A stretch of DNA of 19,891 nucleotides from a virus, in the UHGV virus genome UHGV-0140551, one strand, 5' to 3'. The translations under genes and the position numbers were made by a program. Within the stretch, counting starts at the first letter, position 1. Every line of letters starts with the position of its first letter. Under the pieces are notes generated by a model. That model was not told the origin of the DNA and did no database searches. It saw only the letters and a program-made list of their open reading frames with translations. Positions 1-19,857 of the stretch are shown piece by piece.

Positions 1-136
1 TTGTTTCATAACACGCTTTGGATGTAGCGCGAATACGTTATCAGTTAAGACGCTCCTATTAACACCCCACAGCGAACAAACACTTACCATATAAAACAAC
101 TAGTTAAAGTAATTTTTAATGCAGTGAATTGCAGTG

Positions 137-1186: not shown

Positions 1187-1210
1187 TGCGATACCGAGGC
1201 TAAAAGAAAA

Positions 1211-1549: not shown

Positions 1550-1558
1550 TACTGCTCC

Positions 1559-2404: not shown

Positions 2405-2425
2405 ATGACACCAACAAGAATTTTG

Positions 2426-2454
2426 TTTACAACCAAAATTTAGCGATCTATATT
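2426..2454 (+). promoter_or_regulatory. Candidate early lytic promoter (pR-like): -35 TTTACA, 17-bp spacer, -10 TATATT
   Basis: Sigma70-like hexamers with ideal spacing, sitting between the repressor start and the first early gene at 2518. Confidence 0.5.
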
Positions 2455-2517
2455 GGTGCTCACCGACCAAGATGCACACCACTGCACTACATTTCAAACA
2501 ACAGGAGATAATGCGAT

Positions 2518-2889
2518 ATGTCAGATGCAAAATCAATCTCGACGCACGACTCGCAAAACTCACAAAATCAAACTGTGCTGCTAGACCCAACACAGTTTGA
2601 TGCCATCGTTACCGCCATGCTGCCAGCTCTACAGACAATGATTCGCTCCGCTATGTCAGACACGATGACTGTGAAAGACTTCGCCGCTACTCGCGGTGTT
2701 AGCGAGCGTCTGGTCTGGCAATGGCTCGATGAGGGAGTCCTTCTCAAAGCTCCGACCAAAGACTTTTCCAACAAAGAGGAAGCTGCTAAACGAAGCCGAA
2801 CCCTCGTAAATGTAAAAGCATGGCGCGATAAGCTGACTCAACAAGCGATTGATTGTCGCTACATCGACCAGCGCACCGCTCTTAACTGA
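2518..2889 (+). CDS. Cox/Apl-like early regulator or excisionase (HTH protein, first gene of the early operon)
   Basis: 123-aa ORF with an AGGAG ribosome-binding site. It sits in the position of 186 apl / P2 cox and has an HTH-like segment (VKDFAATRGVSERLVWQWLDEGVL). Confidence 0.6.
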   Translation: MSDAKSISTHDSQNSQNQTVLLDPTQFDAIVTAMLPALQTMIRSAMSDTMTVKDFAATRGVSERLVWQWLDEGVLLKAPTKDFSNKEEAAKRSRTLVNVKAWRDKLTQQAIDCRYIDQRTALN

Positions 2890-2921
2890 ATTTGATTATG
2901 CAAGTTAGAGGGAATTTAACC

Positions 2922-3431
2922 ATGTTTGATTTTCAGGTTTCCAAACATCCCCACTATGACGAAGCATGCCGCATTTTCGCACAGCGTCACAACATGGCGA
3001 AGCTGGCCGAGCGTGCAGGTATGAACGTTCAAACGTTACGTAACAAGCTCAACCCGGAACAGCCTCACCAGTTCACGCCGCCTGAATTGTGGCTGCTGAC
3101 TGACCTGACCGAAGACTCAACCCTCATTGATGGTTTTTTAGCGCAGATTCACTGCCTACCATGCGTGCCGGTTAATGAGTTGGCTAAAGACAAATTGCAG
3201 TCTTATGTCATGCGCGCGATGCGTGAACTCGGCGAACTGGCGAGCGGCGCGGTATCTGATGAACGTCTGACCACTGCCCGTAAGCACAACATGATTGAAA
3301 GCGTTAACTCCGGCATTCGCATGTTGTCATTGTCGGCTCTGGCGCTGCATGCACGTCTGCAGACTAATCCAGCTATGTCGAGCGTGGTCGATACCATGAG
3401 CGGTATTGGCGCATCGTTTGGTCTGATTTGA
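2922..3431 (+). CDS. cII: Phage regulatory CII family protein (186 CII-like)
   Basis: Lies immediately after the apl-like gene, as 186 cII does. Start set to the ATG at 2922, which has a GAGGG ribosome-binding site, rather than the TTG at 2892. Confidence 0.6.
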   Translation: MFDFQVSKHPHYDEACRIFAQRHNMAKLAERAGMNVQTLRNKLNPEQPHQFTPPELWLLTDLTEDSTLIDGFLAQIHCLPCVPVNELAKDKLQSYVMRAMRELGELASGAVSDERLTTARKHNMIESVNSGIRMLSLSALALHARLQTNPAMSSVVDTMSGIGASFGLI

Positions 3432-3432
3432 G

Positions 3433-3639
3433 GTGCGTATGCTGAAAAGTGAACCGTCATTCGCATCGCTGCTCGTTAAGCAAAGCCCCGGCATGCACTA
3501 CGGCCACGGCTGGATCGCAGGTAAGGACGGCAAGCGCTGGCACCCGAGCCACTCGCAGGCTGATTTACTGGCTGGCCTCTCTACTCAAAAGCGGGGGGAA
3601 TCATGGCTATCGAAGCTGTTTCCGCGACTGTTCCGCTAA
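3433..3639 (+). CDS. Small early protein, positionally equivalent to 186 fil
   Basis: 68-aa ORF directly after the cII stop in the early operon. No motif recognised. Confidence 0.4.
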   Translation: MRMLKSEPSFASLLVKQSPGMHYGHGWIAGKDGKRWHPSHSQADLLAGLSTQKRGESWLSKLFPRLFR

Positions 3640-3941
3640 AAGCGGGTGAACGTCTGGCCGGTCTCAATCATGTTGCCGAATTGCGCGCGAGATATTGGGG
3701 CGATAGCTGGAAAGAGGTTGAACGTTTTGTCGATGATATGCGCGATAAACGTGACCCACAATTTGAAGAAAATAATCGGGCGCTGGCCGCTATTTTCTTT
3801 CTGGCAAAAATACCGGCGGCTCGTCATGAACTCGAATTAAGTGAGCTGACTACTGACGAGAAAAAGGCGCTTATTACAGCGATGAATCATTTTCGTGCAG
3901 TAGTGAGCTTATTTCCCAAACGGCTAACCATGCCGAATTAA
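3603..3941 (+). CDS. Early hypothetical protein, positionally equivalent to 186 dhr
   Basis: 112-aa ORF whose ATG is preceded by GGGGGGA. It overlaps the previous ORF by 37 nt in another frame. Confidence 0.5.
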   Translation: MAIEAVSATVPLKAGERLAGLNHVAELRARYWGDSWKEVERFVDDMRDKRDPQFEENNRALAAIFFLAKIPAARHELELSELTTDEKKALITAMNHFRAVVSLFPKRLTMPN

Positions 3942-4008
3942 TCCAAACAGAAATTTAATGGCGTAAACCCGCCGGGCATCTTATTGCCCGAAAGCAGGAG
4001 AGTTAATT

Positions 4009-4236
4009 ATGCGTAATACCGAAATCCGTAGTTTTAACACTGATAGCGATGCGCTGGCCGTATTGCTGACCGATGCAAAAAAAGAAGAGCGTAAAGACCG
4101 CGCGCTCGCTGTTTCCATCCGCCTTGAGGCGCTGGCTATTCATATTACCAGAGAGGGTATGAGCGGCACCGAAGCTGCCGAACTGCTGCGCCGTGAAGCA
4201 ACCCGCTTTGAGAATGAATCACAGGAGCTGCACTAA
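4009..4236 (+). CDS. Small acidic early protein (possibly DUF2732-like, as in P2-like phages)
   Basis: 75-aa ORF with an AGGAGA ribosome-binding site, placed before the TraR-like gene as in P2/186 early operons. Confidence 0.5.
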   Translation: MRNTEIRSFNTDSDALAVLLTDAKKEERKDRALAVSIRLEALAIHITREGMSGTEAAELLRREATRFENESQELH

Positions 4237-4457
4237 TGGCCGACGCAATGGATTTAGCACAACTGCGCGAGCAGGAAGACCGCGAACGCCACATCAGCAA
4301 CGCACGCACCCGTATCGCTGCACCTTCCCGTTTTCTTTGCGAGGAATGTGACACACCAATCCCGGAAGCTCGCCGCATTGCGATTCCGGGCGTGGCTTTT
4401 TGCATAACCTGCCAGCAAATAGCAGAGCTAAAAAACAAACACTATCGGGGGGTATAA
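4236..4457 (+). CDS. TraR/DksA-family C4 zinc-finger protein
   Basis: 73-aa ORF with CEEC…(17 residues)…CITC spacing, characteristic of TraR/DksA zinc fingers. The ATG overlaps the stop of the upstream gene. Confidence 0.75.
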   Translation: MADAMDLAQLREQEDRERHISNARTRIAAPSRFLCEECDTPIPEARRIAIPGVAFCITCQQIAELKNKHYRGV

Positions 4458-4458
4458 A

Positions 4459-6681
4459 TTGGCTGTTCAATTCGCTTATCCGTGGAACGTCCCACGGTCG
4501 GCAATCTCCAGCCCATACCTTACTTATGAGCAACAGCATCGCCGCGACCGTATGTTCGCGGCTTTGCTGCATGCAAAAAAGGTGCTTTCTCTCCAGCCCG
4601 ACTGCGTGCGGTTAGATGTTTATCGCACTGCTGCGGTGCTGGAGCAAAATCAGGGTAGTCAACGAGCCAATGCATTTTTAATCAGCTTCTGCAAAAAGGC
4701 ATTGCCGCGTCTTGAACTGGTCGCAAAAAAATACGAATGCGCTGGTATCAACAGCAAGGTATCAACCGCTGTTTTTGGAAGTCATTTTGATACTCAGCAA
4801 ATGCAATATCTGTCGTCACGCATGGTTAATATGGTCGCCCAATATAACCGTCTCCCGGACATGTCGCGCGCTGATGTTGACCTGTTGGCCGCTGATATTG
4901 CTAATTTCATTCGTGGTGAACTTGCCAACATTAATGACCACGGATTCGGCGAGCTTAAAACGCTGTACACCTGGTATATTCGTGCTGGCTTTATTTCCCT
5001 CCAATTCAACGTTATCCCACCACATTGGGAGCGGGTTGAAAAAAAATATGTCGGTGCGGATGAAATCGCACCGGCTATCGCCAAAATGTTTAACGATGGG
5101 TGGTGGCGCGGTCGTTTGCGCCGTGTTGCAGCTACGTGGCGCGAACACCTGCAAATTGCAGTCGGCAACGTCAGTAAGAAAAAAAACACTTACGCGAGTA
5201 AAAACTGCGTGACTGACTGGCGTGAACAAAAGCGCCGCACTCGTGAATTTCTCAAAGGTCTGGATCTCGAAGACGAAGACGGCAACCGTATCAGCCTAAT
5301 TGAAAAATATGATGGCTCAGTTGCTAACCCTGCGATTCGCCGCTGTGAGCTCATGACCCGCATTCGTGGGTTTGAAAACATCTGTAATGAGCTCGGTTAT
5401 GTCGGTGAGTTTTACACTCTAACCGCGCCGTCAAAATATCACGCCACGACTAAAGCCGGTTACCGTAACAGCAAATGGAGCGGTGCCAGCCCGGCTGACA
5501 CGCAAAACTATCTAACCGGTATCTGGGCGCGTATCCGTGCCAAACTACATCGGGAAGATGTCCGTATTTTCGGTATTCGTGTCGCCGAGCCCCATCACGA
5601 CGGCACTCCACACTGGCACATGCTGATGTTCATGCTGCCGGAAGATGTTGAATATGTTCGCTCCATCGTCCGTAAATACGCATGGAAAGAAGACCGCCAC
5701 GAACTGAAAAGCGATAAATCCAAAAAAGCACGTTTCCACGCCGAGTCCATTGACCCGGAGAAAGGCAGCGCAACCGGCTATGTTGCTAAATACATTTCAA
5801 AAAATATCGACGGTTATGCTCTCGATGGTGAAACCGATGATGAAAGCGGTGAGCTGCTGAAAGAGACAGCCCCCGCCGTTTCAGCATGGGCTGCGCGCTG
5901 GCACATCCGTCAGTTTCAGTTTATTGGTGGTGCGCCGGTGACGGTTTACCGTGAGTTGCGTCGCCTCGCTGATACCGAAACCGCGCACGGTCTGAGCGTT
6001 GAGTTTGCCGCCGTCCATGATGCCGCCGACGCTGGTGACTGGGCTGGTTATGTTAATGCTCAGGGTGGGCCGTTTGTCCGTCGCGATGATTTACAGGTGC
6101 GCACACTGTATGAACCGCGCACCGAGCTTAATCAGTACGGTGAGGAAACGGTATGTATTAAGGGGGTCTACGATTCCTCCATAGGTGCAGGAAGCCCGAT
6201 TTTAACCCGGCTCACTCAGTGGAAGATTGTTCCGAAGCGTGCTGTTGATTTGGCCGTTGACCTTCAGGACGGCAAAGCCGTCCCTCGGAGTTCTGTCAAT
6301 AACTGTACGGGAAGCGAAAGCGATCCACCGATACTGGATTTAACAAAACCACTGAGTCGGCGTGAAAGACGAGAATTGACCAACCGACTCAGGAAGCAAA
6401 AGCCAGCAGCACGGCGAAAATTCATCCACGGAACGGATGAGCAAAACGCAGCTATAGCTAAAACTATCGATGAGATACATCTGACAACCGGCATTAATAT
6501 CAGCCGGGGCGAAGCCCTGCACCTGATGGCCGGTGGTAAAAGTTGTTTTGATGGTAAATGGCTACGCGGAACGGCCAAAGGAGAAATATTTTCCGCAGCA
6601 CCATCGCATGAGGCTAAAGCTCGGAAAATCCTTAATCGTGTTGCGGCGATGGCTGAAGCATCAAAACCAATACATGGGTAA
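4459..6681 (+). CDS. Replication initiation endonuclease (P2 gpA-like rolling-circle initiator)
   Basis: 740-aa ORF with an HUH-type metal-binding motif (TPHWHMLMF) and a tyrosine-rich catalytic segment (GYVAKYISKNIDGY). The start is a TTG at 4459 with a GGGGGG ribosome-binding site; the alternative ATG at 4552 is not excluded. Confidence 0.85.
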   Translation: MAVQFAYPWNVPRSAISSPYLTYEQQHRRDRMFAALLHAKKVLSLQPDCVRLDVYRTAAVLEQNQGSQRANAFLISFCKKALPRLELVAKKYECAGINSKVSTAVFGSHFDTQQMQYLSSRMVNMVAQYNRLPDMSRADVDLLAADIANFIRGELANINDHGFGELKTLYTWYIRAGFISLQFNVIPPHWERVEKKYVGADEIAPAIAKMFNDGWWRGRLRRVAATWREHLQIAVGNVSKKKNTYASKNCVTDWREQKRRTREFLKGLDLEDEDGNRISLIEKYDGSVANPAIRRCELMTRIRGFENICNELGYVGEFYTLTAPSKYHATTKAGYRNSKWSGASPADTQNYLTGIWARIRAKLHREDVRIFGIRVAEPHHDGTPHWHMLMFMLPEDVEYVRSIVRKYAWKEDRHELKSDKSKKARFHAESIDPEKGSATGYVAKYISKNIDGYALDGETDDESGELLKETAPAVSAWAARWHIRQFQFIGGAPVTVYRELRRLADTETAHGLSVEFAAVHDAADAGDWAGYVNAQGGPFVRRDDLQVRTLYEPRTELNQYGEETVCIKGVYDSSIGAGSPILTRLTQWKIVPKRAVDLAVDLQDGKAVPRSSVNNCTGSESDPPILDLTKPLSRRERRELTNRLRKQKPAARRKFIHGTDEQNAAIAKTIDEIHLTTGINISRGEALHLMAGGKSCFDGKWLRGTAKGEIFSAAPSHEAKARKILNRVAAMAEASKPIHG

Positions 6682-6755
6682 TTCATATCCATATCATGCA
6701 CATACAGCAATCGCTCTATTCGTTTTTTTTCTTCCCATCTTTTGCCAATACGTGC

Positions 6756-6775
6756 TACTGTATAAATATACAGTA
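6756..6775. promoter_or_regulatory. LexA operator (SOS box) TACTGTATAAATATACAGTA
   Basis: CTGT-N8-ACAG with 19 of 20 matches to the consensus TACTGTATATATATACAGTA. It lies 20 bp upstream of the ORF at 6795 and overlaps an AT-rich -10-like region. Confidence 0.85.
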
Positions 6776-6794
6776 ACCCTGTGGGAGGGATTTC

Positions 6795-6977
6795 ATGGTT
6801 GGCGAACATTTCAGCCGAACGCAGCAAAAGTGGGCTTGTGTGCAATTTATTGCCGAGGTATCTCTGATTGCAAACTGCAAGCCATCAGACTTAAAGCTCG
6901 CGCTCACTCTCATTGCAGACCTAGCAAACAGCGAAAATAACGAAACCGAAGATGATAATTTTTATAAGGCTGATTAG
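6795..6977 (+). CDS. LexA-regulated small protein, candidate Tum-like antirepressor (N-terminal part)
   Basis: 60-aa ORF with a GGGAGGG ribosome-binding site 6 nt upstream, directly downstream of the LexA box and immediately before the DinI-like gene. 186 tum has the same arrangement. Confidence 0.5.
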   Translation: MVGEHFSRTQQKWACVQFIAEVSLIANCKPSDLKLALTLIADLANSENNETEDDNFYKAD

Positions 6978-6980
6978 ATT

Positions 6981-7214
6981 ATGAGAATCAATATCACGTT
7001 GGATAAAGAGCAAAAAATTAGTCAGGCAACATTGGATGCACTTGAGGCTGAACTGTACCGCAATCTTCAACCTATTTACCCAAAGACTGCTATCCGAATT
7101 CGCAAGGGCTCCGCTAATGGCGTTGAACTAAGCGGTTTGAAACTGGACGAAGATAAAAAACGAGTAATGGAAATCATGCAGCAGGTATGGGAGGACGATA
7201 GCTGGCTGCATTAA
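6981..7214 (+). CDS. DinI-family protein (Tum C-terminal / Orf97-like)
   Basis: 77-aa ORF with clear similarity to DinI (MRI…ALE.EL.RR…MEI.Q.VWEDD…W), in a LexA-controlled operon. Confidence 0.8.
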   Translation: MRINITLDKEQKISQATLDALEAELYRNLQPIYPKTAIRIRKGSANGVELSGLKLDEDKKRVMEIMQQVWEDDSWLH

Positions 7215-7220
7215 CAAACG

Positions 7221-7255
7221 CCGCCGGTGCTGAAACTTGCTTTCAGTGCTGGCGG
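7221..7255 (+). terminator. Stable hairpin immediately after the DinI-like stop codon (15-bp stem with G-U pairs, 5-nt loop); no clear U-tract
   Basis: CCGCCGGTGCTGAAA-cttgc-TTTCAGTGCTGGCGG. Could be a weak terminator, an RNA stability element or a processing site. Confidence 0.35.
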
Positions 7256-7347
7256 GGTTGAACAACGAGCTACGCGAGGCGTTAGCCGGTCATAGCGTCG
7301 CAAATACTTCAACCGTCTGCTGGTTAAATAATTCGAGGTTTTTGTAC

Positions 7348-7542
7348 ATGCAAAATCCCCTTTCATCGAAAAATGACCCGTTTGCCGATTGGGCAAAGAA
7401 TCTGACTTTAATGGCTTTAAATAACGACCTGAGCTCTCGCGAGGTGGAAAGCTACACCGCAAAAATGGTCGAGCAGGCCGGTAAAGATGAGCTATCAGTC
7501 GTTATCAAACACCTGTTAAATCACATCAGAATGCGCAAATAA
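7348..7542 (+). CDS. Small hypothetical protein (64 aa)
   Basis: Start trimmed to the ATG at 7348, which has a GAGG ribosome-binding site 8 nt upstream (MQNPLSSKNDPFADWAKN…). No recognisable motif. Confidence 0.45.
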   Translation: MQNPLSSKNDPFADWAKNLTLMALNNDLSSREVESYTAKMVEQAGKDELSVVIKHLLNHIRMRK

Positions 7543-7558
7543 GAGGAACTATATAAAT

Positions 7559-7660
7559 ATGTTATCTATCGTTTATGAAAATCCGTGGACGACGATTTTT
7601 CTGATGATTGTTGCCAGCATGTGCCTCAACAGTGTTATTGGCGCATTGCGCGGCCATTAA
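7559..7660 (+). CDS. Small hydrophobic, probably membrane-spanning peptide (33 aa), not in the supplied ORF track
   Basis: ATG at 7559 to TAA at 7658-7660, translating to MLSIVYENPWTTIFLMIVASMCLNSVIGALRGH. It starts 17 nt after the preceding ORF and is followed by a rho-independent terminator. Below the length cut-off of the ORF track. Confidence 0.35.
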   Translation: MLSIVYENPWTTIFLMIVASMCLNSVIGALRGH

Positions 7661-7682
7661 TCGCGACAAAACCAGACTAAAA

Positions 7683-7708
7683 CCGGCACCCTGAATGCCG
7701 GTTTTTTT
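7683..7708 (+). terminator. Rho-independent terminator ending the early/SOS operon (bidirectional architecture)
   Basis: CCGGCA-ccctgaa-TGCCGG followed by TTTTTTT, and preceded by an A-run. Confidence 0.8.
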
Positions 7709-7868
7709 ATGCCATTTTTCCGCGAATTTCCCGTTTTTTAGTCGTGCATGCATTAGGTGCATGGTTTTGCATGCGTCAGTCTTGCCCGTTCTGTCCGTGC
7801 GCCGCCAGAGCTAGCGCGGATCCAGAGTTGTCATGCAACTGCATTAAAACCGCCCCATAAAGCGGGCA

Positions 7869-7887
7869 GGCGTGGCGGGGAAAGCAT
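7869..7887. other. cos cohesive-end site (186-type)
   Basis: GGCGTGGCGGGGAAAGCAT matches, from memory, the 19-nt cohesive end of coliphage 186 and 17 of 19 positions of P2 cos (GGCGAGGCGGGGAAAGCAC). It lies between the replication gene and the portal remnant, as expected. Confidence 0.7.
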
Positions 7888-8106
7888 TGCGCGCCAGCAG
7901 TGATGCGTAATAATAAAAATTATCCTCTGAGCGCGTCGTGATGGCGCTGTCGTGGTCGCTGCTGGTTCGTTGGTGGTCGAGTGTGTTCGTGCGCGTGAGA
8001 CGCATCTGATGCGTGATGGTGGTGTGCATGGAAAAGCCACCAGGAGCAGCGGCTTTACAGGAGTGGCAGGATTCAAACTGCTAATTATGTTTCTACTATG
8101 ATTAAA

Positions 8107-9111
8107 CTAATTTACATGTATGTAGAGTTCACCGTCGCCAGACCAATCGGGACACTCTAAAACAAGCCCAAACTGCTTGAATATTTCATCAATGATTATT
8201 GTTATCTCCCGAAAATCACCAAAACCTGTAATGTGCTGGTCATTAAACTTCCCATAAAGATTCTGAAAAGCAATGCCTAATTCTGATAATTGATATCTTA
8301 TCTTTGAGTTGGATAGTGTAAGGGATAGCTTTGGATCGTATTCTTTAATATTGATGTTTAGAGAATGGACATAACCCATCGCATAAGCATAAGAGTTGAT
8401 GATTAGCCTGATACGTTTTTTTACTTCAAGATACATGTCATTCAGAGAAATATTACCGTACTTATAACCCCAGATGAGTTTTTCAATCTCGTCAGATACT
8501 TCATTTACAACAGTGTCAAGATTCTCTAAAAATAAATCGATAGTTTCTTGAGGGGCAGACCCCGAAGACATGTAATTAGCGAGATATTCAGACCATGCAC
8601 GCGTGGCTGAGATAAGAAGCGCGCTACCATACTCGTTGACTGTAAAGTTTTGGGCTAAGCATGTTAGTAAGTTTTTTTCATGTACGTGCACTAATTCATG
8701 GTGAATGCGATGGATGACTGCGAGGTATCCTTCTTCTTTCAGTTTTAAGAAGCTACCATCATTGAAAAGCTCAACAAAAAAATCAATCGATAGCACAAGG
8801 GTATATTCTTCACATAGCCCATCATTGCCAATTTTTGTTACTAACTGCCCGACGGCTGCGCCCTGTTTGCTATTGGTAAATGAACTAGGGGATTTGTGTT
8901 GGTAAGAGGATGTTACCTTTTGAAGAGCTTCACTGAAGTTATAGGAAACAATCACGCATTTTAATTTGGAGATATCAAGATTGAGATTTTTTGTTAAAGC
9001 TCGGATAGCTTCTAGTGTGAAATTACCGATATTATTTGCTTCTTGCTCAGTAGCGAAACCTTCGAGGGTTATTTTAAAATCAGTTTCCAAAATATTAATC
9101 TCCGCGCCCAT
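8107..9111 (-). CDS. AT-rich accessory protein with an HExxH (zinc-metallopeptidase-like) motif; candidate anti-phage or abortive-infection gene in the cos-portal hotspot
   Basis: 334-aa ORF of markedly lower GC than the flanking phage genes. It contains HRIHHELVHVHEKN (HELVH at residues 138-142), has no Walker A motif and no transmembrane segments, and sits where P2-like phages carry variable accessory genes. Confidence 0.7.
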   Translation of the reverse strand: MGAEINILETDFKITLEGFATEQEANNIGNFTLEAIRALTKNLNLDISKLKCVIVSYNFSEALQKVTSSYQHKSPSSFTNSKQGAAVGQLVTKIGNDGLCEEYTLVLSIDFFVELFNDGSFLKLKEEGYLAVIHRIHHELVHVHEKNLLTCLAQNFTVNEYGSALLISATRAWSEYLANYMSSGSAPQETIDLFLENLDTVVNEVSDEIEKLIWGYKYGNISLNDMYLEVKKRIRLIINSYAYAMGYVHSLNINIKEYDPKLSLTLSNSKIRYQLSELGIAFQNLYGKFNDQHITGFGDFREITIIIDEIFKQFGLVLECPDWSGDGELYIHVN

Positions 9112-9128
9112 TGTTTTGATATTCGATG

Positions 9129-9157
9129 CACTATAGCTTTCGCAGATTGCATCTTCA
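9129..9157 (-). promoter_or_regulatory. Candidate own promoter for the 334-aa gene: -35 TTGAAG, 17-bp spacer, -10 TATAGT (minus strand)
   Basis: Hexamers read on the minus strand in the 78-bp gap between the portal remnant and the gene. The predicted leader is short and lacks a strong SD. Confidence 0.35.
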
Positions 9158-9188
9158 ATAATGAGCGCAGAGATTGTGGCGGCCTAAG

Positions 9189-9722
9189 TTATTCTGGGTT
9201 GTCGAGGGTGTACTCTTTGAATCTGATGACCTCCATGCCGAGCCAGTCATTTACCTCCCTGAACCTGTCCTGTAGCGGCGACAGCTCGTTGCGCACAAAT
9301 ACCTTTGCCACCTTCTCAACATCACCGAGTGAACCGATATTCTCGGGCTTGCCGCCCATGAGCTGGAACGGTACGCGGTGCGCGTCCATCAGATCGGCGG
9401 CACTGGCCTTCTTGATGTTGAAAAAGTCATCCTTTGTGGCGACCTCGCTCAGTGGCACGATTTTGATGCCGTCCGGTTTTCCGCCGGGAGCGTAGAAAAA
9501 CAGGTTCTTAAAGTTGCCGAGCCCTTTTGAGTTGCGCATCGCCTCGCGCAGCGATTCGACGTCGGTCGCGCTCTGCGCCGGGTCAGTCACATACATGATG
9601 TAGCCTGCGTGCGCGCCGTTCTGATAATACTTGCGGCGGAACAGCGTCGCGGATTCATTCAGCCAAGCGGAATTGACCGTCCAGTCAGCCGAGATTGTGC
9701 CGTACCAAATTGACGCGACGCT
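9189..9722 (-). pseudogene. Portal protein (P2 gpQ-like), 3' fragment only
   Basis: The frame is open from 9722 down to the stop at 9189, with a portal-like C-terminal translation (…FFYAPGGKPDGIKIVPLSEVATKDDFFNIK…VFVRNELSPLQDRFREVNDWLGMEVIRFKEY…). The N-terminal half is absent; a stop lies at 9723-9725 and a J-like frame begins on the opposite strand. Confidence 0.6.
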
Positions 9723-9969
9723 CTACGTTTACCCCGGCCCCGAGTCTGAGCCCATCAGGCAGGCATCAGAACAAAAGCTGCAGAGTTACATCAGCGCGCA
9801 GCACCGCCTCGGGCGTGATATCCGTCTGTCGGCCATTTACGCGGCGCTGCATGTTGAGGGGGTGCAGCGTGTCGAACTGGCATCACCGCAGGCCGACATT
9901 GTGCTGAGTAAGTCGCAGGCGTCGAATTGTACTGAGTACCAGATAACTATCGGGGGCTCGGATGAGTGA
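9700..9969 (+). pseudogene. Baseplate assembly protein J (P2 gpJ-like), C-terminal fragment only
   Basis: The translation …LYVYPGPESEPIRQ…QHRLGRDIRLSAIYAALHVEGVQRVELASP…ITIGGSDE resembles the gpJ C-terminus. Only about 90 residues are present and the stop overlaps the gpI start, as in P2. Confidence 0.6.
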
Positions 9970-10570
9970 CCGGCTATTACCCGTTGGCTCGTCGCCGCTG
10001 GAGGTTGCCGCCGCCGCTGCGTTCTCTGAGATTCAGCGCGTGCCGGTACCGCTGCGCACCCTGTGGAACTGGCGCACCTGCCCGGTAAAGCTGCTGCCGT
10101 ATCTGGCGTGGGCGCTGTCGGTCGACAGGTGGGATGAGAAATGGCCGGAGGCGACAAAGCGCAACGTCTGCGCGTCCTCGTTTTTCGTCCATCAGCACAA
10201 AGGCACCATCAGCGCATTGCGTCGGGTCGTCGAGCCGCTCGGCTTTCTGATTGAGGTGCGCGAGTGGTGGCAACTCGACGAGGAGCCAGGCACATTCCGC
10301 CTCGTTGTTGGCGTCCTCGACAGCGGCATCACTGACGAAATGTATCAGGAGCTTGAGCGCCTGATTGAAGACGCCAAACCGGCAAGTCGCCACCTGACCG
10401 GGCTGGCTATCAGTCTGAGCTCGACCGGCGAACTGTATGTCGGCGCGGGATGCTATCACGGCGACGCGCTGACTGTTTACCCCTACACCCCCGAGGAGAT
10501 TGTCGTCGGCGGTGAATATTACCCGGCCTCGGCCATCCATTTGATTGATAACCTGAGAGTGAACGCATGA
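9962..10570 (+). CDS. Baseplate/tail protein I (P2 gpI-like)
   Basis: 202-aa ORF with conserved gpI segments (LLPYLAWALSVDRWDEKW, DAKPASRHL) and the typical start overlap with J. Confidence 0.85.
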   Translation: MSDRLLPVGSSPLEVAAAAAFSEIQRVPVPLRTLWNWRTCPVKLLPYLAWALSVDRWDEKWPEATKRNVCASSFFVHQHKGTISALRRVVEPLGFLIEVREWWQLDEEPGTFRLVVGVLDSGITDEMYQELERLIEDAKPASRHLTGLAISLSSTGELYVGAGCYHGDALTVYPYTPEEIVVGGEYYPASAIHLIDNLRVNA

Positions 10571-11523
10571 CCGCAAAATATTTTGCCATTCTGACCAATC
10601 AGGGCGCGGCGCGGCTGGCGAACGCGGCGGCACTCGGTACCAAACTCAACCTGACGCAGATGGCCGTCGGTGATGCGAATGGTACGTTGCCGACCCCTGA
10701 CCCGGCGCAGACGAAGCTCATTAACCAGAAACGCATCGCGCCGCTGAACCTGCTGACCGTTGACCCGGCCAATACCAGTCAGATTATCGCGGAACAGATT
10801 ATTCCCGAGAATGAAGGTGGTTTCTGGATCCGCGAGATTGGTCTCTATGACGATGATGGTATTCTGATTGCCGTGGCGAACTGTCCGGAGACCTACAAGC
10901 CACAACTGCAGGAGGGAAGCGGTCGCACGCAGACCATTCGCATGATTCTGATTGTGTCGAACACATCGGCAATCACCCTGAAAATCGACCCGGCAGTCGT
11001 GCTGGCAACGCGCCAGTATGTCGACGACAAGATTATCGAGGTGAAAGGATATGCTGATAACCTGATGAAAAAACATGTTGAGGCCGCCAATCCACACAAG
11101 CAGTACCCGTTAATCGCTAATGCTCTGAAAGAAATGGTTGACGCGGGACTGGCCGGCGACGTTCTTAAAAACCTTGGTTTGGGAGAGGGAGCAAAATTAG
11201 GCGCAGCGGTGTGTGTGACCGGCTCTACAGGCTATATGACTATCCCGGCAATGGTCGCCGGGAAAGAACGGGTGATCATATTGCAGTGGTTTGGTGCTAC
11301 TACAACTGATTATGTGACACCAGTAACTGCGAATTTCCCTATTGCATTCCCAAATGAGTGCATGATTCCGTTATTTAGTGATGTATCAACTGGGGCAGTT
11401 GATTTGAGTTCTACAGCCGCATATAGCTTAGCGGTGGGCCGATCATACTATACGACGGTAACAAGAACTCAGATTACATGTGCTGGCTACGGTGGCTTTA
11501 GAGTTTTCGCGATTGGATGGTGA
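10567..11523 (+). CDS. Tail fibre protein (P2 gpH-like): constant N-terminal region fused to the currently expressed variable C-terminal segment
   Basis: N-terminus matches the conserved gpH start ([18 protein letters not shown]…[22 protein letters not shown]…[18 protein letters not shown]…). A recombination site lies inside the gene at 11162-11187. Confidence 0.85.
11162..11187. repeat. Invertase crossover site (hix/gix-like), left copy, inside the tail fibre gene
   Basis: TTCTTAAAAACCTTGGTTTGGGAGAG resembles hix/gix sites and is an imperfect inverted repeat of 12711-12736. Confidence 0.6.
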
Positions 11524-11948
11524 TTAATATGTTTTATTCTGCAAAAGAAAATGCGTTCTACGCTGATGAGCTAAAAAGTATTTATGAAAATGCAGGTAGC
11601 TGGCCTGACGATGCCGTTGAAGTAGACTATTCCGTATTCGTTGAGTTTGCCGGAGAATCACCTAACGGAAAATTACGCGCTCCTAATTCTGATGGTTTAC
11701 CTGAATGGATAGATATTCCCGAACCAACTGAAGAGGAAATTATTGCGTTGGCAGAAGCCGAAAAATCGCGACTGCGTGCTTCAGCTGACTCTGAAATAGA
11801 ATGGCGGCAGGACGCCGTTGATGCGGGGATCGCGACGGAAGAAGAAACTGTTTCATTAGCCGAATGGAAAAAATACCGGGTGCTGCTGATGCGAGTTGAT
11901 ACAGCAGACCCGGACTGGCCTACTCCTCCGGCGACTCAGGCCAGTTGA
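11517..11948 (+). CDS. Tail fibre assembly chaperone (gpG/U-like), paired with the current fibre tip
   Basis: 143-aa ORF with the typical motif [10 protein letters not shown]…WPDDAVEV…; an alternative start is the ATG at 11529. Its 3' end overlaps the convergent paralogue. Confidence 0.85.
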
Positions 11949-12351
11949 TATCTGGTGCGCTGGATATGTCCACAGATTCCAGCGCATCGAGATAATCCAG
12001 CCACTCGTTATACTGGGCCTTCTCGTCGTCTGTAAGTCGCCCCAGCGCAGCTTTACCCGGCCACTGCTTGCTGTTTATATACTCATTAGCCTGATCGATA
12101 CGATACTGTTTTTCAGCTTCAGCTGCTGCGATTTCCTCCTCATGGCTTAAAGGTGGAATGTCTACCCATGCCGGCATTCCATCCTCAGTAGCTCCACGAG
12201 TTTTACCCTCTGGTGGCATCCCCGAATATTCAGTGAATGTCTCATCTGAGACGGCTATGAGATCGTCAGGCCAGTTTCTACTCGCTTCATAAACATCTCT
12301 GAGCTCATCAGGGTAGAAAGCGTTATTTAATGCTGAATAAAAATAAGCCAT
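11920..12351 (-). CDS. Alternative tail fibre assembly chaperone (U'-like) in inverted orientation
   Basis: 143-aa paralogue ([22 protein letters not shown]…WPDDLIAV…) on the opposite strand, convergent with and overlapping the 11517-11948 gene by 29 nt. Confidence 0.8.
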
Positions 12352-12354
12352 TTA

Positions 12355-12726
12355 TTAATACCCCACAGCAAAATAGTTAAACCCGCCAGCGCCGATGGAT
12401 GATTCAGCGTTGGTTCCTGTCTGATAAGCGCGTAGCTGGAAATTAGTTCTCGTAAAATCCTGGGCGGTTAACGCAAAACCTTGACCTGTACCCCCAACAC
12501 TCTGGTCTGTTGCAACAACACATAGCGCCCTGGTTGGAAACGCAATCGGGAATGATACTGTTTCTGGGGATGTTCTCGTTATGGCTATTGCCCATTGAAG
12601 AATTAACCCGCCTGGCAGGTATTGATACCCCGAATCGGCTCGCTGATTACCAAATGAAGACATGTCCGGAATCTGTCCGGAACCAGTGCCAACATTTTTT
12701 TTTGCCGCATCTCCTAAACCAACCTT
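12355..12726 (-). CDS. Alternative tail fibre C-terminal segment (Sv'-like), lacking its own start; expressed only after inversion
   Basis: The frame is open from the recombination site at about 12726 to the stop at 12355. Its …KVGLGDAAKKNVGTGSGQIP… mirrors …[13 protein letters not shown]… at the left site, and its stop is followed by the chaperone start. Confidence 0.65.
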   Translation of the reverse strand, partial: KVGLGDAAKKNVGTGSGQIPDMSSFGNQRADSGYQYLPGGLILQWAIAITRTSPETVSFPIAFPTRALCVVATDQSVGGTGQGFALTAQDFTRTNFQLRAYQTGTNAESSIGAGGFNYFAVGY

Positions 12727-12736
12727 TTAGAAAATG
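12711..12736. repeat. Invertase crossover site (hix/gix-like), right copy
   Basis: CTCCTAAACCAACCTTTTAGAAAATG matches the reverse complement of 11162-11187 at about 18 of 24 positions. Confidence 0.55.
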
Positions 12737-12788
12737 CAGATATTCCGTTCAGCTGGCATGATCCCGACTTTTTACCGGGTTATTTCTC

Positions 12789-13031
12789 ATGTTTATCGGT
12801 TATGTACGTGTATCAACAAATGACCAGAACACCGCATTACAGCGAAATGAACTGGAGTGCGCAGGATGCGAGCTGATTTTCGAAGATAAAATCAGCGGCA
12901 AAACATCAGACTGGCCGGGGCTAAAGAGGTTACTCAGAACCTTGTCAGAGGGCGATACGCTTGTGGTCTGGAAACTGGATCGCCTCGGGTATCTCAACGC
13001 TATACAAAAAATTTCCCGCATCCGTTGCTGA
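12789..13031 (+). pseudogene. Serine DNA invertase (Gin/Hin/Pin family), truncated after about 68 conserved residues
   Basis: MFIGYVRVSTNDQNTALQRNELECAGCELIFEDKISGKT…GDTLVVWKLDRLG closely matches invertase N-termini, then diverges to 12 unrelated residues and a stop. The remaining catalytic part and the C-terminal DNA-binding HTH are missing. Confidence 0.8.
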
Positions 13032-13129
13032 TGTCTCAATGTGTCAGACATCACCCAACACTGACAAATAGCCCCTCAACAGACCAGCCAGGACAATAAC
13101 ACTTGCCCACTAACCACGGAGTTAACCGG

Positions 13130-14308
13130 ATGAGTGATTTTCACCACGGCGTGCAGGTGCTTGAGATTAACGACGGCACCCGCGTCATTTCCACTGTTGC
13201 AACCGCAATTGTCGGCATGGTCTGCACGGCCAGCGATGCGGATGCCGAGACATTCCCCCTCAACGAACCGGTATTGATTACCAATGTGCAGAGCGCCATT
13301 GCAAAAGCCGGTAAAAAAGGCACGTTGTCTGCCTCCCTGCAGGCCATCGCCGACCAGTCAAAACCTGTCACAGTTGTCGTGCGTGTTGCCGAAGGTACCG
13401 GAGAAGACGCCGAAGCGCAGACCATTTCCAATATCATCGGCGGCACGGATGAGAGCGGTAAATATACCGGCATCAAGGCGCTGTTGACTGCCGAAGCAGT
13501 CACCGGCGTTAAGCCGCGCATTCTCGGCGTGCCGGGTCTCGATACCAAAGAGGTCGCAGTCGCACTTGCTTCGGTCTGTATCAGCCTGCGCGCCTTTGGC
13601 TATATCAGCGCATGGGGTTGTAAAACCATTTCCGAGGCGATGGCCTATCGCGAGAATTTCAGCCAGCGCGAGCTGATGGTCATCTGGCCTGATTTCCTTG
13701 CATGGGATACCACCACAAACGCCACCGCACCGGCATACGCAACTGCGCGCGCACTCGGCCTGCGTGCCTATATCGACCAGACCGTCGGCTGGCACAAAAC
13801 CCTGTCTAACATCGGCGTGCAGGGTGTTACCGGCATCAGTGCGTCAGTGTTTTGGGATTTGCAGGCATCCGGCACCGATGCTGATCTGCTCAACGAGGCC
13901 GGGCTCACAACACTGGTGCGTAAGGATGGCTTCCGCTTTTGGGGTAACCGCACCTGCTCTGATGACCCGCTTTTCCTGTTTGAGAACTACACCCGCACCG
14001 CGCAGGTGCTGGCCGACACGATGGCCGAGGCGCACATGTGGGCGGTCGATAAGCCCATCACCGCATCACTTATCCGTGACATTGTCGACGGCATTAACGC
14101 CAAATTCCGCGAGCTGAAATCAAACGGCTACATCGTGGACGGTGAATGCTGGTTTGACGAGGAATCGAACGATAAGGAAACCCTCAAGGCCGGGAAACTG
14201 TATATCGACTACGACTATACACCGGTTCCACCACTGGAAAGCCTGACCCTGCGCCAGCGTATCACCGATAAATATCTGGTAAATCTGGCCGAATCGGTCA
14301 ACAGCTAA
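13130..14308 (+). CDS. Contractile tail sheath protein (P2 gpFI-like)
   Basis: Starts MSDFHHGVQVLEINDGTRVISTVATAIVGMV, as P2 FI does. ATG at 13130 with a GGAG ribosome-binding site; the TTG at 13103 is rejected. Confidence 0.93.
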   Translation: MSDFHHGVQVLEINDGTRVISTVATAIVGMVCTASDADAETFPLNEPVLITNVQSAIAKAGKKGTLSASLQAIADQSKPVTVVVRVAEGTGEDAEAQTISNIIGGTDESGKYTGIKALLTAEAVTGVKPRILGVPGLDTKEVAVALASVCISLRAFGYISAWGCKTISEAMAYRENFSQRELMVIWPDFLAWDTTTNATAPAYATARALGLRAYIDQTVGWHKTLSNIGVQGVTGISASVFWDLQASGTDADLLNEAGLTTLVRKDGFRFWGNRTCSDDPLFLFENYTRTAQVLADTMAEAHMWAVDKPITASLIRDIVDGINAKFRELKSNGYIVDGECWFDEESNDKETLKAGKLYIDYDYTPVPPLESLTLRQRITDKYLVNLAESVNS

Positions 14309-14323
14309 GGAGCCTGAAACAAC

Positions 14324-14842
14324 ATGGCACTACCCCGCAAACTTAAATATCTGAACATGTTCAATGACGGCCTTAGCTACATGGGCGTTGTTGAATCCGT
14401 GACGCTGCCGAAGCTGACCCGCAAGCTCGAAAACTATCGCGGCGGCGGCATGAATGGCGCGGCGGCGATTGACCTTGGTCTCGACGATGATGCGCTCACC
14501 GTCGAATGGTCTGTCGGTGGCCTGCCTGATGTGGCGCTGTGGGCGCAGTACGCCGCGCCGGGTGCTGACGCTGTGCCGTTGCGTTTTGCTGGCTCTTACC
14601 AACGTGACGACACTGGCGAAATCGTGGCGGTCGAGGTGGTCATGCGTGGCCGTCATAAAGAAATCGACGGCGGCGAGAATAAGCAGGGTGAAAACACCTC
14701 GACCAAACTGTCGACCGTATGCACCTATTACCGCCTCACGATTGATGGTAGCGACGTCATCGAAATCGATACCGTCAACATGGTTGAGAAGGTGAACGGC
14801 GTCGACCGTCTGGAACAGCACCGCCGCGCAATCGGGCTGTAA
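14324..14842 (+). CDS. Tail tube protein (P2 gpFII-like)
   Basis: 172-aa ORF directly after the sheath gene, with an AGGAG ribosome-binding site and a conserved FII-like sequence. Confidence 0.9.
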   Translation: MALPRKLKYLNMFNDGLSYMGVVESVTLPKLTRKLENYRGGGMNGAAAIDLGLDDDALTVEWSVGGLPDVALWAQYAAPGADAVPLRFAGSYQRDDTGEIVAVEVVMRGRHKEIDGGENKQGENTSTKLSTVCTYYRLTIDGSDVIEIDTVNMVEKVNGVDRLEQHRRAIGL

Positions 14843-14850
14843 TTCCCTGA

Positions 14851-14879
14851 CCGGTCAGCACTGCTGGCCGGTTATTAAT
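14851..14879 (+). terminator. Hairpin plus U-rich tract between the tube gene and gene E (possible attenuator)
   Basis: CCGGTCAGC-act-GCTGGCCGG (9-bp stem, one G-U pair) followed by TTATTAAT. Confidence 0.4.
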
Positions 14880-14905
14880 CCCCATTCAGAGCAGAGAAAA
14901 ACATC

Positions 14906-15241
14906 ATGGCAAAAGCACCACGTAAAACCGCTGAATTTGTTGATATGGCTGGCAATGAAATTGACACCGTAAACCCGAACGTCGTGACCCTCGACAAGCC
15001 GATTAAGCGCGCCGGTCAGACGATTGATAAAGTCACACTGATTGAGCCGAACGCCGGTACCCTGCGCGGTGTCAGTCTGGCAGCGGTGGCGCAGTCCGAA
15101 GTCGATGCGCTGATTAAGGTATTGCCACGCATGACCTACCCCGCGCTTACGGCGCAGGAGCTTACCGCAATGAACCTGCCCGATATGCTGTCGCTGGCCG
15201 CTAAGGTGATTGGTTTTTTGTCACCGGCTTCGGCGGAGTAG
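14906..15241 (+). CDS. Tail assembly chaperone gpE
   Basis: 111-aa ORF in the conserved position, containing the slippery heptamer T_TTT_TTG at 15214-15220. Confidence 0.85.
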   Translation: MAKAPRKTAEFVDMAGNEIDTVNPNVVTLDKPIKRAGQTIDKVTLIEPNAGTLRGVSLAAVAQSEVDALIKVLPRMTYPALTAQELTAMNLPDMLSLAAKVIGFLSPASAE

Positions 15242-15393
15242 ATTTCCCGCCCGACCTGTCGACCGATGACCTGATGGCGGATATCGCGGTGATATTCCAC
15301 TGGCCGCTATCAGAGCTCTATTCCCTGAGCCTGACCGAGCTCATCACATGGCGCGAAAAGGCGCTGCAGCGTAGCGGACACCACAATGAGTAA
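14906..15393 (+). CDS. gpE+E' extended product made by programmed -1 ribosomal frameshift at 15214-15220
   Basis: After a -1 shift at TTTTTTG the frame reads VTGFGGVDFPPDLSTDDLMADIAVIFHWPLSELYSLSLTELITWREKALQRSGHHNE and stops at 15391-15393, overlapping the tape-measure start. This is the P2 E/E' arrangement. Confidence 0.75.
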
Positions 15394-17828
15394 TAACCTG
15401 AGACTTGAGGTTTTGCTGAAAGCGGTCGACCAGGCGACCCGACCGCTTAAATCCATCCAGACCGCGAGTAAAACCCTGTCGGGCGATATTCGCGAAACAC
15501 AAAAAGGGCTGCGTGACCTGAATGGTCAGGCGTCAAAAATCGACGGCTTTCGTAAGGCCAGTGCGCAACTGGCCGTGACCAGTCAGGCGCTTGAGAAAGC
15601 GAAACGCGAAGCCGGTGAACTGGCCGTGCAGTTTAAAAACTCCACCAGTCCGACCCGCGCGCAGGCGCAGGCACTCGAAGCGGCAAAGCGTGCTGCCTCT
15701 GAGCTACAGACGAAGTACAACAGTCTGAGAACGTCTGTACAGCGCCAGCGCTCCGAACTGATGCAGGCCGGTATTAATACCCGCACCCTTTCTGCCGATG
15801 AGCGTCGGCTCAAAACCTCCATCAGCGAAACGACGGCGCAGCTTAACCGCCAGCGTGAGGCACTCGCGCGTCAGTGCGCAGCAGGCGAAATTAGGCCGGG
15901 TGAAAGAGCGATATAAATCAGGCAAGGAGCTTGCCGGTAACATGGCCGCTGCAGGGGCTGCCGGGGTAGGTATCGCGACAGCGGGAACGATGGCCGGGGT
16001 GAAATTACTGATGCCCGGTTATGACTTTGCGCAGAAAAATTCCGAGCTGCAGGCCGTGCTCGGGGTCGATAAGCAGTCGCCAGAAATGGAGGCGCTACGC
16101 AAACAGGCACGCCAGCTCGGTGACAATACAGCCGCTTCTGCTGATGATGCAGCCAGTGCGCAGATTATTATCGCCAAAGGGGGCGGCGATGCGGCAGCCA
16201 TTCAGGCGACGACACCGGTCACCCTCAATATGGCGCTTGCCAACCGTCGCACGATGGAAGAAAACGCCGCATTACTGATGGGGATGCGCTCTGCGTTTCA
16301 GCTTTCCAATGACAAGGTGGCGCACATTGGCGACGTTCTGTCGACGGTGATGAATAAAACTGCTGCCGATTTCGACGGGCTGAGCGATGCGCTGACATAC
16401 GCCGCGCCGGTGGCGAAAAATGCCGGTGTCAGCATTGAAGAAACTGCCGCAATGGTGGGCGCCCTGCATGACGCCAAAATCACCGGCTCGATGGCCGGCA
16501 CCGGGAGCCGTGCGGTTTTAAGCCGCCTGCAGGCTCCGACCGGTAAAGCGTGGGATGCGCTTAAGGAGCTGGGGGTCAAAACTTCCGACAGTAAAGGCAA
16601 CACGCGCCCGATTTTTACCATCCTCAAGGAAATGCAGGCCAGTTTTGAGCGTAACAATCTCGGCACCGGTCAACAAGCCGAATACATGAAAACGATATTC
16701 GGTGAGGAAGCCAGTTCGGCGGCGGCGGTGCTCATGACTGCCGCCTCAACCGGCAAACTTGACCAGCTAACCTCCACCCTGAAAGCCTCAGACGGAAAAA
16801 CCGCAGAGCTTGTTAAAATTATGCAGGATAACTTAGGTGGCGACTTCAAAGAGTTTCAATCCGCTTATGAGGCCGTCGGTACCGACCTCTACGACCAGCA
16901 AGATAGCTCATTGCGTCAGCTAACTCAGACAGCAACACGGTATGTGCTAAAGCTTGATGACTGGATCAAAGACAACAAGGAGTTAGCGGAAACTATCGGC
17001 ATCATCGCCGGTGGTGCGCTGGCGCTGATTGGTATCATCGGCGGCATTGGTCTCGTTGCGTGGCCGGTTGTCATGGGGATTAATGCCATTATCGCCGCTG
17101 CTGGCGTGCTGGGTACGGTCTTTACTGTCGTCGGTAGTGCCATTGCGACAGCGCTCGGTGCGATTACCTGGCCGATAGTGGCCGTCGGTGCGGCGATTGT
17201 GGCGGGGGCGCTACTCATCCGTAAATATTGGGAGCCCATCAGCGCATTTTTCTCGGGAGTGATTGAGGGCATCATGAGTGCCTTTGCCCCAGTCGGGGAA
17301 ATGTTCGCTCCACTGGCTCCCATTTTTGATGGTCTCGGCGAGAAACTGCGCGGCGTCTGGCAGTGGTTTAAAGACCTGATAGCACCGGTTAAGGCCACGC
17401 AGGAAACGCTTGATAGCTGCAAAAGTGTCGGCGTCATATTTGGTCAGGCACTGGCCTCTGCCTTGATGGCTCCGCTCAATGTTTTTAACAAGCTGCGCAG
17501 CGGTGTCGACTGGCTTCTCGAAAAGCTCGGCATCATCAACAAAGAGTCGGACAGCCTCGACCAGACCGCCGCCAAAACCAATGCCGCCACACAGGGTAAT
17601 TCCTACATCCCGGCAACCAGCACATATGGCGGCTATCAGGCTTATCAGCCAGTTACCGCACCGGCGGGGCGCTCTTACATTGACCAGAGCAAAAGCGAAT
17701 ACAACATCAATCTGCCGGGAGGTGTTGCGCCGGGGCATCAGCTTGACAGACAACTACGCGACACGCTCGAACAGATTGAGCGCGATAAACGCGCCCGCCA
17801 GCGTGCCAACATGACCCACGACTATTGA
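15386..17828 (+). pseudogene. Tail tape-measure protein (P2 gpT-like), split by a frameshift at about 15865-15871
   Basis: Two ORFs (15386-15916 and 15798-17828) together cover a gpT-like protein. The frame switches between …QREALAR and VSAQQAKLG… inside a CGCGCG tract, consistent with a 2-nt contraction of a CG repeat. Confidence 0.7.
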
Positions 17829-19493: not shown

Positions 19494-19568
19494 AAAAGCA
19501 AACCAAAACTTGCAAATGCAATTTTGAAGTTTATTATTCCCTCAGATACGCCAGCAGGGGAAATAATT

Positions 19569-19828: not shown

Positions 19829-19857
19829 CAACCTCTGCCGCCAATTTGCCGCCACCA
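19829..19857. repeat. Right attachment-site repeat (attR core)
   Basis: CAACCTCTGCCGCCAATTTGCCGCCACCA, an imperfect direct repeat of 142-170. Confidence 0.7.

Follow-up and report, generated by a model that had tools for sequence, protein, structure and literature searches.

The window, i.e., the entire 19,891-bp stretch of DNA analyzed here, is a defective P2/186-type temperate phage of E. coli, in which one simple deletion has joined the 3' part of the portal gene Q to the 3' part of the baseplate gene J. Defective phages of this type are already well known, and the element is notable only for its recurrence as a closed circle in several public assemblies. We consider it probable that a single illegitimate deletion gave rise to the defective phage and that its attP form derives from an excised, replicating circle.

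The deletion was mapped on the intact prophage of E. coli 1008S13 (L003; NZ_CP147053.1, 4094084-4124645), which lies between yfiB and rplS and shares 99.8-99.9% nucleotide identity with the window on either side of the junction. In BLAST alignments, window 7217-9674 corresponds to L003 9080-11537 with 5 mismatches and window 9674-11189 to L003 21471-22986 with 1 mismatch, while L003 11538-21470, i.e., 9,933 bp, is absent from the window. Megablast against three collections likewise places the switch in homology at a single base, window 9674. The original prediction had postulated a single internal deletion, and this part of it stands: since the flanks are collinear with an intact prophage of 99.8-99.9% identity and are joined at one point, one simple deletion produced the junction. 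The predicted loss of about 13 kb is an overestimate, as the window lacks 9,933 bp of its nearest intact relative; the parental genome is put at 29,824 bp, of which the 19,891-bp derivative represents 67%. An alignment of the breakpoints for microhomology had also been suggested, and against the intact prophage it yields a single shared T (GCGGAATT/GACCGTCC).

The two gene fragments that meet at the junction are readily recognized. The portal fragment is 100% identical to WP_000517961.1 of the intact prophage and matches positions 183-341 of 344 of PHROG 68 ("portal protein"; E 4e-83); with Pfam Phage_portal it scores 27 bits, which is under the family cut-off because only a fragment of the protein is left. 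It has neither a start codon nor a promoter of its own, the first in-frame ATG being located at 9596. The gpJ fragment, in turn, is 100% identical to the matching part of the intact 302-aa gpJ, scores 24.3 bits with Pfam Baseplate_J (over the 21.1 cut-off), and matches positions 132-228 of 228 of PHROG 4226 ("baseplate protein"; E 2e-43). Thus, the leftward portal-like frame and the rightward gpJ-like C-terminal frame that had been noticed from the letters were both correctly placed and named. The minus-strand frame is open from 9722 to its stop at 9189, and the plus-strand frame from a TTG at 9631 to its stop at 9969, so that the two overlap on opposite strands over 9631-9722, as had also been noted; however, since neither strand shows homology past 9674, this overlap is a chance extension of each open frame into antisense sequence of its neighbor. 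When 8900-10400 is compared with phage records by megablast, it divides in the same way, the left half matching portal genes at 99.5% identity to phage vB_EcoM-613R3 and the right half matching the baseplate J and I genes at 96% to phage Midge.

Table 1. Coordinates of the features discussed in the text, in window positions.
Feature	Position	Strand	Remarks
Attachment-site core AGTTAAGACGCTC	43-55		13-nt repeat flanked by both phage arms (attP)
Tyrosine integrase, 349 aa, intact	137-1186	minus	Pfam Int_N and Phage_integrase; 100% identical to L003
186-type CI repressor, 281 aa, intact	1559-2404	minus	Pfam Phage_CI_repr and Phage_CI_C; 100% identical to L003
First early gene, weakly Cox-like; candidate excisionase/repressor	2518-2889	plus	apl/cox position; 100% identical to L003
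Replication endonuclease gpA, intact	4552-6681	plus	Pfam Phage_GPA; 709/709 residues identical to L003
Perfect LexA box	6758-6773	plus
60-aa ORF	6795-6977	plus	position of 186 tum
cos, 19-nt cohesive-end sequence GGCGTGGCGGGGAAAGCAT	7869-7887	plus	two mismatches to P2 cos
Portal (gpQ) 3' fragment	9189-9674	minus	residues 188-348 of 348 (161 codons)
Deletion junction	9674/9675		L003 11537 joined to L003 21471; T at 9674 assignable to either side
Baseplate gpJ 3' fragment	9675-9969	plus	residues 206-302 of 302 (97 codons; coding 9676-9969)
Tail gene I	9962-10570	plus	Pfam Tail_P2_I
Tail gene H	10567-11523	plus	Pfam Phage_tail_fib
Tail gene G	11517-11948	plus	Pfam Caudo_TAP
Sheath FI, tube FII and gpE, all intact	13130-15241	plus	100% identical to L003; Pfam families
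Tape-measure gene T, broken	15386-17828	plus	2-bp deletion at 15864/15865; first frame stops at 15916
gpU, gpD and ogr-like late activator, all intact	17842-19787	plus	100% identical to L003

Since Q and J are transcribed divergently, the deletion took the 5' ends of both genes together with the whole interval between them. Besides the truncated Q and J, whose remnants abut at 9674 between flanks collinear with the intact prophage, 14 of the 44 phage proteins of L003 have no match anywhere in the window by tblastn, in agreement with the predicted absence of morphogenetic and lysis genes. These are the terminase ATPase (large subunit), scaffold O, capsid N, small terminase M, L, and X, as well as the holin, GH24 lysozyme, LysB, LysC, R, S, V, and W. 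The set of genes that forms particles is hence reduced to the 161 C-terminal codons of the portal, with P, O, N, M, and L unmatched, and no member of the lysis cassette (holin, GH24 lysozyme, LysB, or LysC) is matched in the window. Based on this gene content, the element is predicted to be unable to build particles or to lyse the cell.

The deletion is not the sole lesion, and in this respect the original prediction, which had attributed the defect to it, holds only in part. The tape-measure gene T has lost 2 bp in a GC run in comparison with two intact relatives, which leaves a 176-aa ORF followed by an out-of-frame remainder, and this frameshifted allele occurs in every related contig of the lineage. 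The remaining tail genes are largely preserved, with I being 100% identical to L003, whereas G and the C-terminal part of H come from a different cassette. The tail-fiber tip cassette as a whole (11189-13031) is swapped relative to the 99.9% identical L003. It contains an inverted alternative fiber C-terminus (12355-12663, minus) and an inverted chaperone gene (11920-12351, minus), and an 80-aa remnant of a serine invertase adjoins it (12789-13031). The region looks like a frozen invertible segment of the Mu-G/P1-C type, and several contigs from other samples break at approximately 11170-11290.

In P2 and 186, the late promoters of the P-Q, O-to-S, and V-to-G operons lie between Q and J. From this gene order, we take three of the four late promoters, including the one upstream of V, to have been located in the deleted interval. 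The P2 late-promoter dyad TGT-N12-ACA has no strict match upstream of P/O, V, or FI in the intact relative L003, and the statement on lost promoters is therefore one of gene order and P2/186 knowledge only. Furthermore, 8533-10200 contains no sigma-70-like plus-strand site that could drive J'-I-H-G, and the total of sigma-70-like sites around the junction is no higher than in shuffled sequences.

As for the origin of the deletion, illegitimate recombination with at most 1 bp shared is proposed to have removed the 9,933 bp from a P2/186-type phage of approximately 29.8 kb, with breakpoints at portal codon 187/188 and at codon 205 of the baseplate gene J. The packaging, head, and lysis genes would have been lost in this step along with the tail and baseplate genes R, S, V, and W, and the 19.9-kb product would form no capsids, package no DNA, finish no baseplate, and cause no lysis. 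The 2-bp frameshift in the tape-measure gene would have arisen either earlier or later than the deletion. Recombination mediated by repeats, an IS element, or the integrase was considered and rejected, as neither a direct repeat common to both breakpoints nor an IS remnant was found; on visual inspection, a gap has to be allowed before the left breakpoint looks like the att core, and the right breakpoint shows no such likeness. In the intact phage, a 10-bp inverted repeat (GGCTGACCGG / CCAGTCAGCC) encloses the right breakpoint (L003 21460-21487) within its 8-nt loop. This hairpin is a possible replication-pause site, for which the evidence is too weak to build on.

The junction has a narrow distribution. 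None of 5,426 complete E. coli genomes carries it by megablast (72 match one or both halves, in no case adjacent to each other), and no junction-spanning match is found by megablast in the phage or plasmid collections, nor an exact match of the 40-nt junction in IMG/VR or among the GTDB representative genomes. The 40-nt junction occurs in only one of the collections searched, that of metagenomes, in OLDH01000001.1, which is 100% identical to window 663-15089. Further contigs were recovered with two allele-specific proteins, i.e., the 135-aa ORF of the portal stub and the 176-aa product of the frameshifted T. Contigs of the lineage thus come from seven metaSPAdes assemblies (ERZ1754488, ERZ1754891, ERZ1754902, ERZ1755106, ERZ1755270, ERZ1755283, and ERZ1755337), from the MEGAHIT assembly ERZ27234110, and from Logan assemblies of SRR1211531, SRR1214034, SRR1215507, and SRR1215958; every one of them matches the window at 100% identity except L018, which has one SNP. 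Other contigs recovered with the 135-aa ORF (L006, L008-L010, L013, and L014) were set aside, as they have an intact terminase and a portal gene split by frameshifts, which is different from the Q'/J' deletion. No publication naming the sample or contig accessions with the element was found.

The original prediction had called for verification that the junction is not an assembly artefact. The same junction is present in at least five assemblies produced by metaSPAdes and MEGAHIT, which resolves this concern, and it is a real molecule. It is identical in ERZ1754902, ERZ1754488, ERZ1755106 (also listed as OLDH01000001.1), ERZ1755283, ERZ1755337, and ERZ27234110, and it stands at 100% identity in seven contigs (L004, L005, L007, L011, L012, L018, and L019). 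That the junction is instead a chimera of assembly or amplification and that the real phage is intact might be suspected from its absence from the complete E. coli, phage, plasmid, IMG/VR, and GTDB-representative collections and from the fact that every junction contig comes from a low-coverage short-read assembly. However, a breakpoint overlap of only 1 bp offers no shared k-mer to mislead a de Bruijn assembler and makes a k-mer misjoin impossible, and the identical junction in at least six assemblies, from two assemblers and two ENA batches, answers the worry. Additionally, no contig recovered from these samples carries the deleted genes beside this allele, and the second lineage-specific lesion, the frameshift in T, co-occurs with the junction. 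We therefore regard a chimera as exceedingly improbable.

The coverage of the element is near-constant over at least seven assemblies (5.14, 5.37, 5.38, 5.54, 5.67, 5.69, and 6.52, among ERZ1754488 to ERZ1755337). Replicates, one culture sampled repeatedly, or a shared contaminant are possible sources of this uniformity, and because the coverages of the main batch are so oddly alike (5.1-6.5), the independent observations may be as few as two batches. An element that is clonal across many samples at near-constant coverage would also suit a deletion engineered in a laboratory strain. Against this, the junction shows no scar, cassette, FRT/lox site, or restriction-site logic; the breakpoints fall inside two coding sequences with a 1-bp overlap, leaving stubs of Q and J, unlike a designed deletion; and a natural seawater isolate carries an independent deletion of the same type. 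Such an origin is hardly credible.

Outside the deleted interval, the element retains the gene order of a P2/186-type phage, namely int-CI, cox/apl-CII-fil-...-gpA ... cos-Q ... J-I-H-G-FI-FII-E-T-U-D-ogr, with Pfam families in the order Phage_CI_repr, Phage_CP76, Phage_186_Fil, Phage_GPA, Tail_P2_I, Phage_sheath_1, Phage_tube, Phage_P2_GpU, and Phage_GPD. At the nucleotide level, the element is approximately 88% identical to phages Midge, RCIP0057, SW9, and PSP3. By tblastn, all early proteins match L003 at 100% identity, as do I, FI, FII, E, U, D, and the ogr-like protein. Regulation, replication, cos, and part of the tail cluster are therefore present as the original prediction stated, in the form of CI, a Cox-like protein, CII, Fil, gpA, DinI, cos, and the I-to-D genes; CII, Fil, and DinI are likewise kept at 100% protein identity. 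The assignment of the first early gene depends on a weak match to PHROG 575 ("Cox-like excisionase and repressor"; E 8e-5), with PHROG 3554 matched as well. Ahead of the 186-type CI helix-turn-helix and CI_C, the repressor has an extra N-terminal helix-turn-helix region at residues ~10-70.

The motif CTGT-N8-ACAG occurs once in the window, as the LexA box (CTGTATAAATATACAG), which lies 22 bp upstream of the 60-aa ORF, a homolog of which is annotated as "UV induction of prophage" in ON470592.1. The box and the ORF, given its position, probably form an SOS induction circuit. Judged from intact genes and this one LexA box, the element is predicted to be competent for replication and inducible by the SOS response. 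For the cos sequence, 0.01 matches are expected by chance, and both ends of the linear record of phage Midge fall inside the same 19-mer, GGCGTGGCGGGGAAAGCAT.

Several genes accompany these modules. Between int and CI lies a gene of the DUF2511/YebY family (1211-1549, minus), which is probably lysogenic-conversion cargo. Between cos and the portal stop, 7844-9160 holds two genes of unknown function, coding for 61 and 334 aa, where the corresponding gap in phage Midge is only 187 bp. The 334-aa gene, beside the portal stub, belongs to PHROG 11743 (unknown function), has its own promoter-like site at 9158-9130, and gives no match in Pfam or PADLOC. In P2-like phages, the gap between cos and the portal gene is a known hotspot for cargo. 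Elsewhere, a 69-bp direct repeat that flanks a 69-aa ORF in two copies in L003 (8675-9148) is present as one copy without the ORF in the window (7217-7285), which suggests that recombination between the repeats removed 405 bp.

The original prediction spoke of a prophage; what the window shows is the attP form in circular permutation, and other samples contain the integrated form. The core AGTTAAGACGCTC is the longest sequence common to attL and attR of the intact prophage. Window 1-55 corresponds to L003 32008-32062, i.e., the attR arm followed by the 13-nt core, and window 19891 to L003 32007, while from window 43 onward the sequence follows L003 from 1501, i.e., the attL core and then int. 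Because its ends map in this way to the attR arm, core, and attL of L003, the window is a circular permutation carrying attP (P-core-P'). Five contigs (L012, L018, L019, L021, and L027) run unbroken through D-ogr-core-int, and attP continuity is seen in ERZ1755337, ERZ1755283, ERZ1754488, ERZ1754891, and SRR1215507. The integrated form is equally evident, since attL is crossed by two contigs (L007 and L011), which lead from int into yfiB and dgcN, and attR by two others (L022 and L023), which lead from D-ogr into rplS, trmD, rimM, rpsP, and ffh. These flanks, which are 98.6-98.8% identical to E. coli, come from ERZ1755106 and ERZ27234110 and place the element in the chromosome at the phage att site, the 3' end of rplS (ribosomal protein L19). 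A comparison of window 1-97 and 19850-19891 with L003 1440-1540 and 31990-32090 indicates that the last L19 codons lie in the 13-nt core AGTTAAGACGCTC and that the stop codon in the lysogen comes from the phage arm, TGA instead of TAA.

The ends of the contigs carry further information. Two NODE_1 contigs are 19,946 bp long, i.e., 19,891 + 55; one of them was computed to end on the 55-mer at window 43-97, and the other, ending at window 1, appears to repeat window 1-55. The repeated 55-mers are the last k-mers that attP has in common with attL and with attR, and this pattern is the expectation for a k=55 graph in which integrated and attP forms coexist. A k=55 branch node at the first base of the window accounts for the position at which the window starts. 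All contigs are uninterrupted through cos, which argues against linear DNA derived from virions. In ERZ1755106, the prophage contig has a coverage of 5.69 and the contig that continues into the chromosome 3.95, and the element is NODE_1, the longest contig, in five assemblies. Contig topology and the coverage values in contig names thus suggest that copies of the element outnumber those of the chromosome.

How the attP signal arises is the point at which the readings diverge. In the proposed scheme, the integrase, the Cox-like protein, CI, the LexA-controlled induction gene, gpA, and cos are left intact by the deletion, and integration at the 3' end of rplS and the formation of attP junctions continue. 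Excision to a circle that could replicate without lytic killing of the host would be the most likely source of these junctions. The main alternative is that the deletion is real and that attP stems from a tandem double lysogen (B-O-P'...P-O-P'...P-O-B') rather than from excised circles. A tandem lysogen would give the same assembly graph at approximately 2x chromosomal coverage, which agrees with 5.69 versus 3.95 in ERZ1755106 and with contigs that end exactly on the att branch k-mers. However, both Int and the Cox-like gene are intact, and excision of a P2-like prophage without head genes was demonstrated experimentally for Sp13, a defective prophage described below. Moreover, if the phage part of NODE_3 has the coverage of NODE_1, its chromosomal part would be at approximately 1.6 and the ratio would exceed 3, as a rough calculation from contig headers. 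Finally, ERZ27234110 gave attL and attR contigs only, which means that a single-copy integrated state exists. We therefore judge the tandem lysogen unlikely and favor excision and replication as the origin of the attP form.

The combination of retained cos, int, replication, and immunity with absent capsid genes is also that of a satellite, and the element might accordingly be a helper-dependent, satellite-like entity packaged by a co-infecting P2/186-like phage. Its 100% identity across two ENA batches and the presence of Sp13 DNA in DNase-resistant particles would be in line with such a lifestyle. Nevertheless, what is found is a phage from which one segment has gone, with dead stubs of genes left at the junction and the remainder 100% identical, and not an adapted satellite. 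No genes for capsid-size redirection or helper derepression appear in the Pfam and PHROG gene tables for the ORFs that were profiled. From general knowledge of cos phages, neither the monomer, at 67% of the parent, nor a dimer, at 133%, is likely to fit a P2-size head; the contigs continue through cos; and the frameshift in T suggests decay. Dead stubs, missing helper-exploitation genes, an awkward size, and further decay make a satellite lifestyle very unlikely. Also very unlikely is the more ambitious proposal that the circle could be a self-replicating, SOS-inducible, non-lytic episome of a clonal E. coli lineage, maintained above chromosome copy number and mobilizable via cos by a P2/186-type helper.

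The defective phage provides a precisely mapped case of prophage decay by one illegitimate deletion, for which an intact parent and an independent sister deletion are both available. For annotation, it would be wrong to count this circular 19.9-kb contig as a complete phage, a plasmid, or a satellite, and a circular contig with its ends on att-core k-mers is a sign that integrated and attP forms are mixed. If reads were to confirm a copy number above that of the chromosome, the element would join Sp13 as a second head-less prophage of the P2 type that remains active in excision and replication. If the mobilizable-episome reading were true, it would offer a natural snapshot of a helper-type phage becoming a satellite or plasmid-like element.

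Among known systems, R-type tailocins, i.e., pyocins derived from P2 tails, share with the element a P2-type sheath, tube, U, D, I, and H and the lack of head genes. However, tailocins possess a full baseplate, tape measure, and lysis cassette and are devoid of int and replication genes, whereas the element has lost R, S, V, W, and its lysis genes, retains only a truncated J, and carries a frameshift in T. P4-like satellites resemble it in being integrative, in having their own replication and a helper-type cos, and in lacking capsid genes. P4 differs in its primase-helicase (alpha), sid/psu/delta, and epsilon genes, its 11.6-kb genome for a small capsid, and its lack of tail genes; no P4-type satellite gene was found among the Pfam and PHROG results for the element, which is a truncated helper-type phage and not a P4-like satellite.

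Closer comparisons are provided by two prophages of the same lineage. The intact prophage of 1008S13 shares the att core and the integration site with the element, and its early proteins are identical; it differs in that the 9,933 bp spanning Q to J are present, the tape-measure gene is unbroken, two 69-bp repeats enclose a 69-aa ORF, and the tail-fiber tip cassette is another one. The prophage of E. coli MB06232 (NZ_CM129885.1, L015 14966-15767), of the same lineage (99.9%) and at the same site, has also undergone one internal deletion, which is an independent loss of 11,586 bp that fused capsid N' to gpE' with a 2-bp overlap at the junction. In contrast to the element, its portal, terminase, and scaffold genes are still present, and those for lysis, baseplate, fiber, sheath, and tube are gone. 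This independent 11.6-kb deletion indicates that such deletions recur in the lineage.

A further counterpart is Sp13, a P2-like defective prophage of E. coli O157:H7 Sakai without head and packaging genes, which excises and circularizes spontaneously, is amplified approximately 30-fold on mitomycin C, and whose DNA is present in DNase-resistant particles (Asadulghani et al. 2009, PMC2669165). Like the element, Sp13 is of the P2 family, has kept integration and replication, and has lost its head and packaging genes; in contrast to the element, most of its morphogenetic genes are missing, and a P4 epsilon-like gene is present. Sp13 is a different phage with a different deletion, given that the junction occurs in none of the complete genomes, those of O157 included. 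For Sp13, excision, circularization, and amplification have been demonstrated, and the attP contigs suggest the same behavior in the element.
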